DNA of 64,000 nucleotides, taken from an uncultured Clostridia bacterium. Its GTDB lineage: Bacteria; Bacillota; Clostridia; TANB77; CAG-508. The stretch's first letter is position 1, and the number at the start of each line of letters is the position of its first letter. The notes under the pieces are model-generated. The model had not been told where the DNA came from and ran no database searches. It worked only from the letters and a program-made list of their open reading frames with translations. Made by a program: the position numbers and the translations under genes. Positions 4,038 to 10,612 of this stretch are shown here, piece by piece. The stretch covers positions 44,895-108,894 of the forward strand of contig CAPPGO010000004.1 in NCBI GenBank assembly GCA_948678575.1. The letters run 5' to 3'.

Positions 4038-4841
4038 TTAAATATCTTTCCTTTCTTCTACTATTCTATTTAAAACTTCTGCAATTCCAGCCTCATTATT
4101 AGTTGTTCTTAAAACTTCCTTTGATAATGATTTTATATCATCAAAAGCATTTCCCATTGCAACACCATAAACTGCATTCATCATCGAAATATCATTATAA
4201 TCATCTCCAAAAGCCATGGCTTCTTCTGGTTTAATTTTTAAATATTTACATAAACCAAGTATTGCATTTCCTTTTGATGCAGATTTATTTATAATATTGA
4301 TAACATGAACCTCTCCTGGTAAATTCTCTGCTATAAATCTATTTTCTACTTTTAAACTTTCATCTAAATTTTCTATAATTTCATCTATATCTTTTGCATT
4401 ATTTGAACCTATGCTTATTTGAAGAATATCATTTTCTTTAAAGAATTTTTTATAATCTTCTTCCATCGGTACTTCATCTAATATTTTATAATCCATTATG
4501 TTTATATATCTTGCATATTTAGTATCTATCCTTACAAATAAATTATTCTTCAAAACATGTTCAAATAATTCTAAGCAAATTGATTCTTCTATTGGACATT
4601 TGAATAATTGTTCATCTTCTTTTGTATCATATATTTCAGCACCATTATCAGCAATTATGTATCTTCCTGCACCAGATATTTTTTGATAATATCTTATTGC
4701 ACTTTGTGGTCTGCCAGAACAAATGCACACTTCAATTCCATTATCCAATGCTCTTTTTATTGCTATCTTATTTTCTTCTAACACATCTTTTTTACTTGTA
4801 AGTAGTGTTCCATCTAAATCAAAAAATACTATTTTAAACAT
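4038..4841 (-). CDS. Cof-type HAD-IIB family hydrolase
   Basis: 267 aa; N-terminal FFDLDGTLL HAD motif I, C-terminal GDDYNDISM motif. Confidence 0.75.
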   Translation of the reverse strand: MFKIVFFDLDGTLLTSKKDVLEENKIAIKRALDNGIEVCICSGRPQSAIRYYQKISGAGRYIIADNGAEIYDTKEDEQLFKCPIEESICLELFEHVLKNNLFVRIDTKYARYINIMDYKILDEVPMEEDYKKFFKENDILQISIGSNNAKDIDEIIENLDESLKVENRFIAENLPGEVHVINIINKSASKGNAILGLCKYLKIKPEEAMAFGDDYNDISMMNAVYGVAMGNAFDDIKSLSKEVLRTTNNEAGIAEVLNRIVEERKDI

Positions 4842-4999
4842 TACTTTCTCTCCTTTTCTAGTAACTATTTTATCATATTATTTTAACTTTTCAATCTATA
4901 TTTATATAAACAAAGAAAAGGTTGGTAGTTTAGTCAATAACGTAATATAACATTTTGCTATAATATAAATGGAACATTGTTTGTTTCACAATAACTTTT

Positions 5000-5959
5000 G
5001 TTATAGTTCCATATTAAGTTTTGATATGATATAATTGGCAAATAGATGTTAAGTATGTGCCAAAAGTTATAGTTCCATATTAAGTTTTGATATGATATAA
5101 TTCTTTCTGTGTCACATCAATTATAAACCAAGTTATAGTTCCATATTAAGTTTTGATATGATATAATCATTTTGCTTGTACATATTTCATTCTATTAGTT
5201 ATAGTTCCATATTAAGTTTTGATATGATATAATTTCTATATCTTCAACATGCTCTTCTAAATAGTTATAGTTCCATATTAAGTTTTGATATGATATAATT
5301 ATAAATCAATATTCTTAACAAAGCCATGAGTTATAGTTCCATATTAAGTTTTGATATGATATAATTGATATAACAGTAAAAACAAAAGACATCAGGTTAT
5401 AGTTCCATATTAAGTTTTGATATGATATAATAAATTAAAGCAGCATTCATGTCTTTTGTAAGTTATAGTTCCATATTAAGTTTTGATATGATATAATTTT
5501 CATATATGCAGCATTTTCAATCAATGGGTTATAGTTCCATATTAAGTTTTGATATGATATAATATAGAAAAATATTGTGATGAGATATGTAGTGTTATAG
5601 TTCCATATTAAGTTTTGATATGATATAATATAGCTTATATGATTAATTTAGATACTTTGGTTATAGTTCCATATTAAGTTTTGATATGATATAATCAATA
5701 TTTATATATAATAATTATAAATACAGTTATAGTTCCATATTAAGTTTTGATATGATATAATCTCAGCTACTGCTAATGTTACACCTAACTGGTTATAGTT
5801 CCATATTAAGTTTTGATATGATATAATAAACATTGTTGCCGAATTATTGCATAATGAGTTATAGTTCCATATTAAGTTTTGATATGATATAATATTACCA
5901 ACATCTAAATCAGATAAAGAGTTGTTATAGTTCCATATTAAGTTTTGATATGATATAAT
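5000..5959 (+). CRISPR. CRISPR array: 15 direct repeats of 36 bp (GTTATAGTTCCATATTAAGTTTTGATATGATATAAT) separated by 14 spacers of exactly 30 bp (period 66)
   Basis: Repeats start at 5000, 5066, 5132 ... 5924, all identical by eye; each repeat ends in TGATATAAT (extended -10). Strand given as the predicted crRNA transcription direction, which is convergent with the cas operon. Confidence 0.97.
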
Positions 5960-6011
5960 ATGAAATTCTATAAGTACCTATTTGAGTGATATACAGCAAA
6001 TTAAATCAGAT

Positions 6012-6050
6012 AAAAAAAGAAAATTACAAAAAAATAATTTTCTTTTTTTA
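6012..6050. terminator. bidirectional rho-independent terminator between the CRISPR array and cas2
   Basis: Perfect 10-bp stem AAGAAAATTA / TAATTTTCTT (6017-6026 / 6035-6044) with 8-nt loop, flanked by an A-run on the left and a T-run on the right. Confidence 0.5.
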
Positions 6051-6055
6051 TGTTT

Positions 6056-6376
6056 TTAAAACAAACTCAACTGATTCACTCGAACTTTTCGTTCATTTTT
6101 TGTTGGCTCACCAACCAAAAATTTCATTTCTTCATATTGTTTTTCTGTAACAGTTAAACATCTAATAGAACCTTTGCTAGGCAGTTCTGAAACTAATCTT
6201 TTCATATGCTTGTTAGTCATATCCGTCCCATTACATAATCTAGAATACACTGAAAATTGCAACATATCATAACCATCATTTAATAAAAATCTTCTAAACT
6301 GAGCATAAATTTTTCTATCCTTTTTCTTTACAACTGGCAAATCAAAAAATACTATAATTCTCATAAATTTACTCAT
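6056..6376 (-). CDS. cas2: CRISPR-associated endoribonuclease Cas2
   Basis: 106 aa; [10 protein letters not shown]...[22 protein letters not shown] typical Cas2; overlaps cas1 by 8 nt. Confidence 0.9.
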
Positions 6377-7271
6377 AACTATGCACCTTTATAGGCAACA
6401 CTTCTGGTAATTCTAATTTTTTATAATCATTTTGCGTAATAGCCGTTGTATAAGATGCAATCATTATATTAATTGCATTATTAACAGATTGCACCTTTCC
6501 TTGAATTTTTACATCTAAATTTAAAAGATTTACCAATTCTGCCCTTATATACTTATCAAATTTTAAATCATTAGTTATATTAGTTTTTACCCATAAGTCT
6601 ACAATGGGTCTAAATGGTTCCATAAAATCATCTACTAAATTATAATTATTTAATTCACTTTTATGATGAATGCCTATTGCTGGAATATACCCATATGATA
6701 CTACACTTCTTGCTATAGCACCTCTAATTATAGAATATCCATAGTTCAAACATATATTATATATATCATCATAACTTCTAGCAAATCTATTAGCAAACAA
6801 TGATTGAAAATACTCTTTTGCCGCTATTGCTTCTCTATTTTGTGTATCTCCTGAATTTACCTTTTTTGACATTTCTTCCAGATGTGTACCCATAAAATCC
6901 TTTTTACACATTTTTAAAACTTCAGCTTGATTTAATATTTTTCTCATAATTACTAATTGCCAACATCTCTTTTTAAAACTTTCAGTTTGATTCAATTGTG
7001 ATTTTATAATTTTTAATTCTCTACTATGAATAGCAAAAGGTATAAATATTCCGTTTGGCAAATGTTTATCATCGCAACTATACATTATAACTTTGTTATC
7101 TGCCATTAGACTCATAACCTTTGACGATATTGATATTTGAGGTGTTTCTAAAACAATTGAAGATATATCTTCAATTGGAATTGTACATTCCTCATCTTGT
7201 GTAATTTTTAGTTGTCTGTTTTTTACAGACAATTTTGTCGGTCGTGTAATTACTACACTTCTCCAACTCAT
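6369..7271 (-). CDS. cas1: CRISPR-associated endonuclease Cas1 (type II)
   Basis: 300 aa; position immediately downstream of cas9 and length/sequence pattern of type II Cas1. Confidence 0.92.
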
Positions 7272-7273
7272 TA

Positions 7274-10200
7274 TTATTCTTTAACTCCTTTCCTTTTCTC
7301 TTTATTTATTTTACTTATATTTCCTAATACACTTACTTCATATTTTTCCAATAATTCTAAATTTTTTACACCAACGCCTTCTATTTTTTTATCTCCACTT
7401 ACTGACAATAAATTAATAGCAGCAGTTCCTCTATGTGTTGAAACATAATAAGCAAAAAATTCTTTTTCATTTTTCTTCTTAATTTTTACTAAATCATTTG
7501 GATATAAACTAAACTTAAAATCATATTCATCTGTCATTTCTATCCAATCTGTTTCATTTTTATATGCTAATATTGCATTATTAGGTAGTTTCTTCTTTAC
7601 GAAATCTGATACATATATTGGCACTAAATAATATTTATTATTCTTTGAAAAAACATCTACTCTAACCATATTAGCATTTTCAGCAATAGCGTCATTTTTT
7701 AATTTCACACCAGTACTTCCAGCTACTGGAACTTTTATACTTCTTACAATTGGACTATTTCCATTCTTGCTATACTTTCTATATTCCTCCTTAAATGCTT
7801 TATTTGCATTAAAATTATGTTCTTTTAATTTTTGGTAAATATCATCATATAATTTTTTATCACTAAAATACAATTCTCTATATGCTTCATTATTTATTAT
7901 CGATTCTATCTCACTTTTAGTGATTGATTTTAAATCTTTTTTTACTAATGTAAATCCCTTGTCTATATTTTTACTAGAACGCATTGTTTCTTTATGTGCC
8001 TTTCCTGTAATCTTTCTCTCTGGCATTCTAGATACAAATATAGGCTTTATTATCGATATATCTACATCATCATAATTTATAAATTCACCATGTTTCAGTG
8101 CATATAACTCTCCATTATTATCATAATCTTCCATTCTTGCTTGAACTTCTTGTCTAAAATTAGTCCAAGGTTCCTTTAATACATTATTTTTATTATATTT
8201 ATCCTCTTTACTATATAAACTTTTATACTTACTATACTCTGCAACTTTCTTGATATTGGCAGTTGTTGCACAGGCTATAACCACAGCATCTTGTGCATGA
8301 TGTTTATCAGAAGCATTTCTGTCTTTACTTAATCCCCAAAAATGCCTTAATGCAGCAGTTGTTGGCCCATTTATATTAAATACCTTTTGCTTTTTGTTAA
8401 TATCAGCAAATTTTAAATTATTAGAAATATAACTATTCATAAATCTAGCAATATATCTTGTATCATTAATATTTCTATCTATCCATTTTTTGGACTTTTC
8501 TTCTGAAAAATTCTTTATAAGTAAATTTTCTCTCTTCTTAGGATTATATTTATATGTTGATAAAACAAATTCTTCAAATCTATGCCAATTTTTTTGATTA
8601 TCACCCATATACTCAAATGGTGTTTTCTCACACTTATTCTGGTTTTCTTTAGACAAGACCAAAACTTTATTATTATAACTGTCATCAAAAGAACGCGAAA
8701 ATGGAATAATATGATCAACCTCGACATATTTATCTTCAAATAATCTATTGGCTTCAATTGGTAAACCTGAATATGCACATTTGTGGCCTTGTTCTCTCCA
8801 TAATTTTACTTTAACAATATCAAAAGGTTTGGGCTCAATTTCAAAATTTTCTCTTATATATTCTTTATCAGTCTCATTGTTCTTTTCATTTTCTTTTTGC
8901 TTCTTATTTATTTTGTCTCGTTCATCAAATGACTTTGCTAATTCTCTTGCTGTCTCTATATGTATTTCTGTTGGTGGACCATATCTATCTATTATGGCAT
9001 TTACTACTTTTCTTGTTTGAGATACTGCTCTTAATACTACTGGGTTTAAAATTACATCATCTAATTCTGAAACAGGAGGTAGTTTTTCTTTAAAATTTTG
9101 TTTATTTTCTTTGTATCCCACATTAGAACAAGCTTCTGTATATCCATATCCATTTTCTAACTCTGGAATTAATTTACTCATAGCCTTATATGATAAATGT
9201 CCAAATTTAGTAAAATTAATTGATAAAACAGCATTGATAATATCTTTATCTATATTTCTATCAGACAAATATTTGATTATTCCTTCATCATCTTTATTTC
9301 TCACTAAAGAATCAGCAATTATATTTTGCAATTCTGGATTTTCAATTATAAGATTAAATTTATCACTACAATTATTTTTCTTACACGCAATTCTTATCTT
9401 ATGCCACCCTTCTAATTTTACAAATTTAGTTTTTTCTACATCTTTTACTAATTCTTTTTCTGATAATTCTTTATTCTTAATATAATAATTTAGTTGTCTA
9501 AATCTATCTTCATCTGAAAGTTCTAATACTTTTCTGATCTGGTTATATTTCACTTCTGCTTGATTATACGCCATTTCTACTATTGCTTTTCTTTGTTCAT
9601 CTGTAATCTTAAAGTCTTCTCTATTCGTTATAACACTTATATTATTTATATTTTGCAACAACATAAATCTTTCAAAAGTATAACTATTTTTAGGAGCCCT
9701 TTGTTCTTCTTTTTCCAAAGTGCATTTACCTATCATTTTATTTAATATTTCTTCTGTCATAAACAGTTTTTGATATGTTATAATATCTATATATTTTTCT
9801 TCAAACTCTTTACTTGCAAATATACTTCCAAATTCTCTCTGTTTTTCAAATAGTATTCTAACTTCATCTATCAACATACTTCTTAAAACAGTATTTTCAT
9901 ATTGTCCACCTTTATTTCTCTTATTATTAACAAATTTTTCATCTTTAAAAAACATCTCTCCTACAGTTCTATAAGCATTTTCTTCCAATAATTTTTTATT
10001 TCTATTAGTTCCTGTAATTAATTTTCCACCTTCACTATCTTCACTTTCTGTTTTTCTATTAGACTTATATCCTCTTCTTTTAGCTATATTAGTAAGTACC
10101 CTTGCCCACTCTTTTCTATCTAATAGTTCATCTAATCCATCAGCTCTTAATTCATATACGTCTATTGAATTTTCGGTCATTACATATAAATTTTCTAACT

Positions 10201-10447
10201 CTTTATCAGATACTAAATTATACTCTAAAAAAAGTTCTTTTACTTTCTGCATTCTGGTAGCTCTTCTTCTAATTCTTCTCCTTGTTCCTCTTGCTTCTCG
10301 TCTTGCTAAATTTAAAGATTTTCCATCAGCCTCTTCTGCCTTTTTAAAAACTCTAACACCCAAATCTTCTATCCTACTTTTTTCTTCATTTATTACTGAC
10401 CATCCTACTGATGCGATACCTATATCTAACCCAATTGTATATTTCAT
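7274..10447 (-). CDS. cas9: Cas9, compact type II-C-like (1057 aa)
   Basis: RuvC-I IGLDIGIASVGWSV; Arg-rich bridge helix LARREARGTRRRIRRRATRMQK; HNH EVDHIIPFSRSFDDSYNNKVLV; RuvC-III HHAQDAVVIA; no csn2 or cas4 in the locus. Confidence 0.95.
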   Translation of the reverse strand: MKYTIGLDIGIASVGWSVINEEKSRIEDLGVRVFKKAEEADGKSLNLARREARGTRRRIRRRATRMQKVKELFLEYNLVSDKELENLYVMTENSIDVYELRADGLDELLDRKEWARVLTNIAKRRGYKSNRKTESEDSEGGKLITGTNRNKKLLEENAYRTVGEMFFKDEKFVNNKRNKGGQYENTVLRSMLIDEVRILFEKQREFGSIFASKEFEEKYIDIITYQKLFMTEEILNKMIGKCTLEKEEQRAPKNSYTFERFMLLQNINNISVITNREDFKITDEQRKAIVEMAYNQAEVKYNQIRKVLELSDEDRFRQLNYYIKNKELSEKELVKDVEKTKFVKLEGWHKIRIACKKNNCSDKFNLIIENPELQNIIADSLVRNKDDEGIIKYLSDRNIDKDIINAVLSINFTKFGHLSYKAMSKLIPELENGYGYTEACSNVGYKENKQNFKEKLPPVSELDDVILNPVVLRAVSQTRKVVNAIIDRYGPPTEIHIETARELAKSFDERDKINKKQKENEKNNETDKEYIRENFEIEPKPFDIVKVKLWREQGHKCAYSGLPIEANRLFEDKYVEVDHIIPFSRSFDDSYNNKVLVLSKENQNKCEKTPFEYMGDNQKNWHRFEEFVLSTYKYNPKKRENLLIKNFSEEKSKKWIDRNINDTRYIARFMNSYISNNLKFADINKKQKVFNINGPTTAALRHFWGLSKDRNASDKHHAQDAVVIACATTANIKKVAEYSKYKSLYSKEDKYNKNNVLKEPWTNFRQEVQARMEDYDNNGELYALKHGEFINYDDVDISIIKPIFVSRMPERKITGKAHKETMRSSKNIDKGFTLVKKDLKSITKSEIESIINNEAYRELYFSDKKLYDDIYQKLKEHNFNANKAFKEEYRKYSKNGNSPIVRSIKVPVAGSTGVKLKNDAIAENANMVRVDVFSKNNKYYLVPIYVSDFVKKKLPNNAILAYKNETDWIEMTDEYDFKFSLYPNDLVKIKKKNEKEFFAYYVSTHRGTAAINLLSVSGDKKIEGVGVKNLELLEKYEVSVLGNISKINKEKRKGVKE

Positions 10448-10477: not shown

Positions 10478-10506
10478 ATTGTATCATTGTATTATATTTT
10501 TGTCAA
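10478..10506 (-). promoter_or_regulatory. predicted sigma-A promoter of the cas9-cas1-cas2 operon
   Basis: Minus-strand TTGACA - 17 nt - TACAAT, followed by AAGGAGG RBS and the cas9 ATG. Confidence 0.4.
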
Positions 10507-10515
10507 AATTTTATA

Positions 10516-10612
10516 AATAAAAAGAAGATACCCCATACTTTAAAGTATGGGGATTACTTCGCACTCGTACGTTTATTATAGTAACATACTAAGTTTTGAT
10601 ATGATATAATAC
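10516..10612 (-). ncRNA. predicted tracrRNA (anti-repeat + terminator hairpin)
   Basis: Plus strand 10580-10610 AGTAACATACTAAGTTTTGATATGATATAAT matches 28/31 positions of the repeat (21-nt identical 3' block). The minus-strand RNA is therefore complementary to crRNA repeats and ends in hairpin CCCCATACTTT/AAAGTATGGGG plus U-tract (UAUCUUCUUUUUAUUU). Confidence 0.65.

Follow-up and report, generated by a model that had tools for sequence, protein, structure and literature searches.

Introduction

When every repeat of a CRISPR array ends in a sequence that resembles a bacterial promoter, the array could make its guide RNAs one by one from the repeats themselves, or it could be read from a single promoter outside them, with the repeat ends owing their sequence to something else. 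This question is raised by a locus in a stretch of 64,000 nucleotides (the window) from an uncultured Clostridia bacterium. A first-pass annotation of this DNA had read the repeat ends as active promoters that transcribe the array towards cas2, and had named the type II-C systems of Neisseria and Campylobacter as its precedent.

The repeat of Neisseria meningitidis ends in the extended −10 box TGCTACAAT, and Zhang et al. reportedly described processing-independent crRNAs in this type II-C system in 2013. Repeat promoters and primary crRNA 5′ ends of N. meningitidis are covered by a review (PMC5965381), and the arrays of both N. meningitidis and Campylobacter jejuni are read opposite to the cas genes (PMC3737331). 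The repeats of C. jejuni NCTC11168 (Dugar et al. 2013) end in the −10-like sequence GGTAAAAT, the primary 5′ ends map to spacer position 5, and RNase III and the tracrRNA make only the 3′ end of the crRNA (PMC3656092). For Clostridium cellulolyticum H10, Fedorova et al. (2020) likened the last nine repeat nucleotides to an extended −10 element and suggested promoter activity; by small-RNA sequencing in Escherichia coli, the crRNAs of this system run opposite to cas and carry 23–26 nt of spacer (PMC7038990). A 2025 survey of more than 650 systems presents repeat-embedded promoters as a general II-C feature (PMC12080349). The precedent in Neisseria and Campylobacter is thus borne out by the literature (PMC3656092, PMC3737331, PMC5965381).

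Gene content of the locus

The three cas genes lie on the minus strand of the window. The product of cas9 (7274–10447), 1057 amino acids long, matches TIGR01865 over its full length (E = 7e-238) as well as the HNH_4, RuvC_III and Cas9_RuvC domains, and its residues D8 and H579 fall in invariant alignment columns. It is followed by cas1 (6369–7271), which belongs to the type II (NMENI) subfamily (TIGR03639, 2.3e-89), and by cas2 (6056–6376; TIGR01573, 2.8e-25). A candidate cas9 promoter composed of TTGACA, a 17-nt gap and TACAAT with a TG extension was found by consensus scan at 10478–10506 on the minus strand. Neither csn2, the mark of type II-A, nor cas4, the mark of II-B, is present in the locus, the adaptation module of which consists of cas1 and cas2 only, and the locus is therefore type II-C as judged by its gene content.

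Past cas2, the array follows directly and then a gene for a HAD hydrolase (4038–4841, minus strand). On the upstream side, a 137-amino acid open reading frame (ORF) and then sigK are found beyond the tracrRNA described below, and the presence of sigK as a neighbor makes the host probably a spore-forming member of the Clostridia. The best genome matches to the Cas9 are uncultured gut Clostridia metagenome-assembled genomes, at no more than 69% Cas9 identity. The nearest solved structures by sequence are those of compact Cas9s of 1055–1095 amino acids, and the best-matching of these, of similar size (E ~1e-245), we take to be GeoCas9.

An extended −10 box at the end of every repeat

The array (5000–5959; crRNA sense on the plus strand) is made of 15 identical 36-nt repeats of the sequence GTTATAGTTCCATATTAAGTTTTGATATGATATAAT and 14 spacers, each exactly 30 nt long, which gives a period of 66 bp. 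The assertion that every repeat ends in a perfect extended −10 box holds without exception, as TGATATAAT forms the last 9 nt of 15/15 repeats. The first of these repeat-embedded boxes, which we identify as putative promoter elements by motif matches and conservation in relatives, is located at 5027–5035 on the plus strand; the remaining ones are spaced every 66 bp, and the final one occupies 5951–5959. Together with the preceding TA, the box reads TATGATATAAT and fits the Gram-positive TRTG-N-TATAAT form. The motif strand and the gene coordinates also agree with the geometry that had been described for the locus, with the boxes on the plus strand and cas9-cas1-cas2 on the minus strand. A usable −35 box is absent from the repeats according to a two-hexamer promoter scan, and it is for this reason that such a scan misses the repeat boxes.

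Given that the GC content of the window is 26.6%, we considered whether the extended −10 match could be a functionless chance product of a very AT-rich repeat. Hexamers similar to a −10 element are common at this base composition, and the 5′ end of the repeat itself contains TATAGT. There are 21 copies of TGATATAAT in the window, 15 of them at the repeat ends and one in a solo repeat copy at 10602–10610, compared to 4.3 expected in the shuffled window (0/100 shuffles reach 21). As the repeats arose by copying, the 15 array matches amount to a single independent event. The more permissive pattern TGNTATAAT is found 20 times outside the array, with 12.4 sites expected in 128 kb of strand. Its base rate there, about 1–1.5 per 10 kb of strand, translates into a probability of ~1e-4 to 1e-3 that a repeat terminates in such a match by chance, even at 26.6% GC, the per-position chance being ~1e-4.

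Conservation of the box in related loci

Arrays were gathered from 80 loci that encode Cas9 relatives with 34–69% identity and span Clostridia, Geobacillus, Saccharibacteria and other Patescibacteria, Synergistaceae and other groups. In nearly all 80 loci, the array is located after cas2 and its crRNA sense is opposite to that of cas9. The ending TGNTANNNT is found in 44 of the 47 distinct related repeats and TGNTATAAT in 37, and the pattern is kept in relatives that are much less AT-rich, such as Geobacillus with a repeat that ends in TGGTATAAT. Despite the low GC content of the window and the 20 matches outside its array, an origin of the box by chance is thus extremely improbable.

The conservation is distributed unevenly within the box. 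T31, A32 and T36, which correspond to promoter positions −12, −11 and −7, are invariant in the 47 distinct repeats, and T28 and G29 are conserved in 98% and 94% of them, respectively. Position 30, the N of the TGN motif, is free (0.37 bits, with the repeat middle averaging ~0.6 bits), and positions 33–35 vary in the manner of real promoters (TACAAT, TATGAT, TATACT). Further upstream, position 27 is a purine in 42/47 repeats and T26 is 77% conserved, which together produce the TRTG form typical of Gram-positive extended −10 promoters. At the level of sequence, this pattern of conservation is the one expected of a σ70 extended −10 element.

The repeat ends display a second regularity, which has to be weighed against the first. 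Positions 31–35 (TATAA) mirror positions 2–6 (TTATA) in 42–46 of the 47 repeats, and a few repeats have changed on both sides jointly. Owing to this terminal inverted symmetry, part of the TATAA conservation could be maintained for the Cas1-Cas2 integrase to recognize, or for an RNA helix, rather than for transcription. The nine bases of the box have a pairing partner in the tracrRNA 5′ end as well. Symmetry and pairing are the basis of an alternative reading in which the repeat boxes are silent and the repeat ends are conserved as a Cas1-Cas2 terminal inverted repeat and as the partner of the tracrRNA 5′ end. Position 1, however, is G in every repeat and position 36 is T throughout, where symmetry would demand C, and the TG at positions 28–29 has no mirror at the 5′ end, so that terminal symmetry alone does not explain these positions, which, with the free position 30, fit σ70 contacts. 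Furthermore, the solo anti-repeats, in which the sequence has to satisfy pairing only, drift at the −10 positions in several relatives (ATTGTA, ATTACA, ATCATA in L067, L034, L031), whereas the array repeats keep TATAAT. The signature of the 47 repeats, in which TG and T−12/A−11/T−7 are fixed and −13 is free, hence separates the promoter constraint from terminal symmetry.

The tracrRNA and the strand of the crRNAs

A repeat-copy search, promoter and terminator scans, folding and comparison with relatives together predict a tracrRNA of about 93 nt on the minus strand (10518–10610). Its putative promoter (10617–10645, minus strand), which has the same layout in relatives, consists of TTGACA, a 17-nt gap and TATAAT and agrees with the consensus at 12/12 positions. 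The anti-repeat, a solo copy of the repeat at 10610–10575, begins about 7 nt past the −10 box of this promoter, spans 36 nt and carries 3 mismatches to the repeat. It is connected by a short linker to a terminator formed by a G-C-rich hairpin (10552–10531) and a T run. The fold of the 98-nt tracrRNA region has a z-score of −4.6, and the predicted energy of the crRNA:tracrRNA duplex is −39.9 kcal/mol.

The same layout recurs in the 27 related loci in which the flank is present, 83–233 nt upstream of cas9 and on the cas9 strand. In a comparison of 23 loci, substitutions in the repeat middle are matched in the anti-repeat, with repeat positions 9–10 unpaired almost throughout; compensatory C-G to U-A changes are seen among relatives in the terminator stem. 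The Rfam search matched no family at the CRISPR locus, and we know of no curated Rfam model for tracrRNAs of this kind.

A tracrRNA encoded on the minus strand pairs only with RNA from the plus strand of the array. From this strand and from the polarity of the repeat, we infer plus-strand transcription of the array, towards and convergent with cas2 and opposite to the cas operon. The direction of transcription that the first-pass annotation had proposed is therefore supported by a minus-strand tracrRNA with a covarying anti-repeat.

The opposite arrangement would have the array read on the minus strand, from a leader on the cas2 side or by read-through from the cas genes, as in type II-A, which would make the plus-strand boxes irrelevant. 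It is the default layout of many CRISPR systems, and the leader of this array does adjoin cas2. Array RNA of this polarity, however, would have the same sense as the anti-repeat and would be unable to pair with the tracrRNA, the strand of which is fixed by a promoter, a scaffold and a terminator that are all conserved in relatives. The plus-sense repeat starts with GTTATAG, which is similar to the GTTGTAG or GTTTTAG with which the repeats of other Cas9 guides start. In addition, a hairpin separates cas2 from the array, and the consensus scan scored no minus-strand promoter in 5960–6055. The probability of minus-strand transcription thus verges on negligible, and the pre-crRNA initiated in a minus-strand leader, which had been named as the finding that would speak against repeat-embedded promoters, is contradicted by the sequence.

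A helix of 8 bp is predicted inside the tracrRNA, between 10594–10586 and 10571–10563 of the minus strand. In the alignment, 87.5% of its cells are paired, compared to at most 50% when the two segments are slid against each other, and 6 cells have changed on both sides; this covariation is modest and was reached by just 2/500 shuffles. The helix may represent a self-sequestering fold of the free tracrRNA or a remnant of the origin of the tracrRNA. A segment of it resembles repeat positions 11–20.

Spacer acquisition and the leader

An identical Cas1 is encoded on many metagenome contigs, three of which (L081, L082 and L083) were retrieved, and four same-species arrays were compared. With this Cas1 present in 474 blocks of the assembly collection, the species is a common one. 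The flanks of these contigs are identical to those in the window, and their spacer sets differ. The shared spacers are all cas2-distal: L082 has spacer 1 in common with the window and spacer 18 with L081, and L081 and L083 share spacer 19. In this small sample of four arrays, the cas2-proximal spacers are all unique. With sharing confined to the side away from cas2, the array appears to gain its spacers next to cas2, at what is its downstream end in the crRNA sense, and a conventional leader promoter could therefore not serve it. Acquisition at the last repeat has been described for II-C systems (PMC12080349).

Comparison with same-species contigs and relatives delineates a leader-like region that adjoins this cas2-proximal, newest repeat (5960–6009, plus strand). 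The relatives L001–L025 and L038 carry the motif AGGTG-N3-CTATAAC beside the newest repeat, and the corresponding sequence here is ATGAAATTCTATAAG (5960–5974), in which CTATAAG at 5968–5974 is the counterpart of the conserved CTATAAC. Being an inverted copy of the repeat start GTTATAG, CTATAAC may be the site at which Cas1-Cas2 is anchored to the leader.

The distal end of the array

The opposite end of the array carries a degenerate terminal repeat, which is the oldest one (4934–4969, plus strand). It was found by a repeat-family search and keeps the 66-bp register of the array. Of its 36 positions, 22 agree with the intact repeat, 8/18 in the 5′ half and 14/18 in the 3′ half; its Cas9/tracrRNA-binding half has decayed, and an in-register TATAAA is found at 4964–4969. 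This 5′-biased decay fits the report that mutations in the oldest repeat of II-C arrays fall mainly within the first 15 nt (PMC12080349). The 30 nt that separate the degenerate repeat from the first intact one form a ‘fossil spacer’ (4970–4999, plus strand), which emerged from the same-species comparison; the two same-species contigs that extend this far carry the identical sequence. Upstream of the array, the first called gene is encoded by the minus strand, and the array thus receives no read-through from a plus-strand gene.

A motif scan detects an extended −10 box, TGCTATAAT, in the degenerate repeat (4956–4964, plus strand). This candidate promoter could start either a transcript made up of the fossil spacer joined to the first intact repeat or a pre-crRNA of greater length. 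In the latter case, the alternative in which the repeat boxes are silent acquires a source of RNA: one long plus-strand pre-crRNA would start from the distal box, and the tracrRNA with RNase III, together with 5′ trimming, would convert it into crRNAs. The box is positioned 36 nt upstream of the first intact repeat, and the repeats contain no −35 box of their own. The full 36-nt repeat pairs with the tracrRNA, its two ends mirror each other over 5 nt and have in some cases changed jointly, and the leader adjoins the box-bearing end of the repeat, where integration is expected (PMC12080349). A sole distal promoter, however, would place the newest spacers farthest from the point of initiation, and it would set this locus apart from both experimentally tested II-C systems, in which the repeat boxes are active (PMC3656092, PMC5965381). 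It also leaves the unmirrored TG and T36 and the −10 drift of the solo anti-repeats to be accounted for. We therefore regard transcription from a single distal promoter as unlikely and favor initiation at the individual repeats.

Two further properties of the distal end were considered and rejected. A hairpin that sequesters the fossil spacer or the first repeat has been proposed for some II-C systems; the fold of 4966–5035 is similar to that of shuffled sequences (z = −1.6). The notion that distal repeats generally keep their 3′ promoter half applies to the window, L013 and L021, and is inconsistent over 27 loci, in which the array ends are crudely defined.

It is conceivable, at a very low probability, that the distal end yields one constant crRNA throughout the species, perhaps directed at a regulatory rather than an immune target, and, separately, that the 8-bp fold-back of the tracrRNA gates tracrRNA availability. 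If true, a fixed fossil-spacer crRNA or a tracrRNA fold-back would constitute a new regulatory layer on the II-C system.

Searches for protospacers of the whole array in GenBank phages returned chance-level matches only, and exact-word scans of IMG/VR with the newest, sample-shared or duplicated spacers gave either nothing or non-extending 21-nt chance matches in contigs with 43% GC. With no protospacers found, the PAM side gave no independent check of the orientation. The window contains no self-targets at five or fewer mismatches over 24 nt, bar chance matches of two AT-rich spacers. Two spacers of L081 and L083, GAGTTTATAAAAATATGTGAAAACGATTAT and GTTTATAAAAATATGTGAAAACGATTATGG, derive from one protospacer with an offset of 2 nt, and spacers 15 and 20 of L081 are two diverged versions of one target. 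Judging by their sequences, these spacers are independent acquisitions from a common mobile element.

The hairpin between the array and cas2

An inverted-repeat search, folding and comparison with relatives identify an A-run/hairpin/T-run element at 6010–6051, a candidate terminator for both strands. The stem comprises 17 bp (6010–6026 with 6035–6051), one of which is a G-C pair, and encloses an 8-nt loop; the z-scores are −2.4 for the plus strand and −3.1 for the minus strand. All close relatives have an A-run, a stem and a T-run at the same position, with stronger stems and quite different sequences. The conservation of position in the presence of differing stems supports the role of a bidirectional terminator that would keep array RNA out of cas2 and cas RNA out of the array. 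The element fails a consensus terminator scan, which requires at least 3 G-C pairs, and the copy in the window, being nearly all A-U, may terminate poorly. Of the shared hairpin terminator that the first-pass annotation had placed at 6012–6050, the hairpin itself is thus real, with slightly wider bounds and equivalents in relatives, but as a terminator this copy is weak.

Model of crRNA production

Combining these findings, we consider it likely that the repeat boxes are active promoters and that this II-C locus is built like those of N. meningitidis and C. jejuni. In this model, RNA polymerase would use the extended −10 element of each repeat (TATG-A-TATAAT) without a −35 element, which, for a box at the very end of the repeat, puts the predicted start about 7 nt into the following spacer. 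Each transcript would then consist of a guide of ~23–24 nt followed by the repeat, and would often run further; the guide of about 23 nt that had been anticipated follows from this start position. The full repeat (36 nt) would form a duplex with the anti-repeat of the tracrRNA, interrupted by a 2-nt internal loop at repeat positions 9–10, and RNase III would trim the 3′ side before the RNAs are loaded into Cas9, by analogy with other type II systems. New spacers would join at the cas2-proximal repeat, downstream in the crRNA sense, and the hairpin at 6010–6051 would stop both the array transcripts and those of the cas operon.

The motif, its strand, the tracrRNA, the polarity of spacer sharing and the hairpin enter this model from the sequence and its comparison with relatives. 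By analogy with the systems studied experimentally, we infer the firing of the boxes, the position of the start and the trimming by RNase III.

Comparison with known II-C systems

The locus resembles that of N. meningitidis in having cas9, cas1 and cas2 only, an array opposite to the cas operon, a 36-nt repeat that ends in an extended −10 element, 30-nt spacers and guides, here predicted, of ~24 nt, and the repeat pattern GTTnTAG...TGnTAnAAT is common to both. It differs in that the host is not a proteobacterium but a low-GC, probably spore-forming member of the Clostridia, and in that the predicted tracrRNA shares the strand of cas9 and immediately precedes it, with a strong promoter and a terminator of its own. 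C. jejuni likewise has a −10-like box at each repeat end, but its box is weaker, transcription starts at spacer position 5 and the arrays are very short, whereas the present repeats carry a perfect TGnTATAAT after TA (the TRTG form). C. cellulolyticum H10 shares with this locus a clostridial host, the same nine-nucleotide box, a tracrRNA upstream of the cas genes and an array opposite to cas; its Cas9 has 1021 amino acids compared to 1057 here, and its repeat is different. The Geobacillus II-C loci L031 and L042 encode Cas9s that are 40–41% identical to the present one, and they have the same layout and the repeat GTCATAGTTCCCCTGAGATTATCGCTGTGGTATAAT with its ending TGGTATAAT, but their hosts are thermophiles with a much higher GC content and the repeat middle is another one.

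The locus is therefore a new example of a design known since 2013, and nothing in it departs from the II-C design; the understanding of type II-C systems is unchanged by it. It adds a well-resolved locus from uncultured, very AT-rich gut Clostridia to the II-C systems with promoter-bearing repeats, and the predicted crRNA and tracrRNA of its compact, 1057-amino acid Cas9 could be tried for editing.

Additional features near the locus

The anti-repeat copy contains a perfect TGATATAAT on the plus strand (10602–10610), which is arranged back-to-back with the −10 element of the minus-strand tracrRNA promoter (10622–10617). With overlapping predicted starts (~10617 on the plus strand, ~10610 on the minus strand), these promoters would be in competition for polymerase. 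A transcript from the plus-strand box would read away from cas9 and antisense to the 137-amino acid ORF.

This ORF (10801–11214, minus strand) sits between sigK and the tracrRNA promoter and is also present in the same-species contigs. It has no NCBIfam match and no Pfam match above threshold, and it is flanked by a putative extended −10 promoter of its own (11286–11258) and a G-C-rich terminator (10812–10793). A tRNA gene at 15298–15369 (minus strand) is the sole Rfam match at the gathering threshold in the whole window.

The sigK ORF (11289–11870, minus strand) begins with a GTG that coincides with the mature N-terminus (VIYGNNNLFPEPLS...) and is closely preceded by stop codons, and it aligns to the SigK profile from position 39 onward. 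Since the profile match begins at this position, the ORF appears to be without the pro-sequence found in Bacillus pro-σK.
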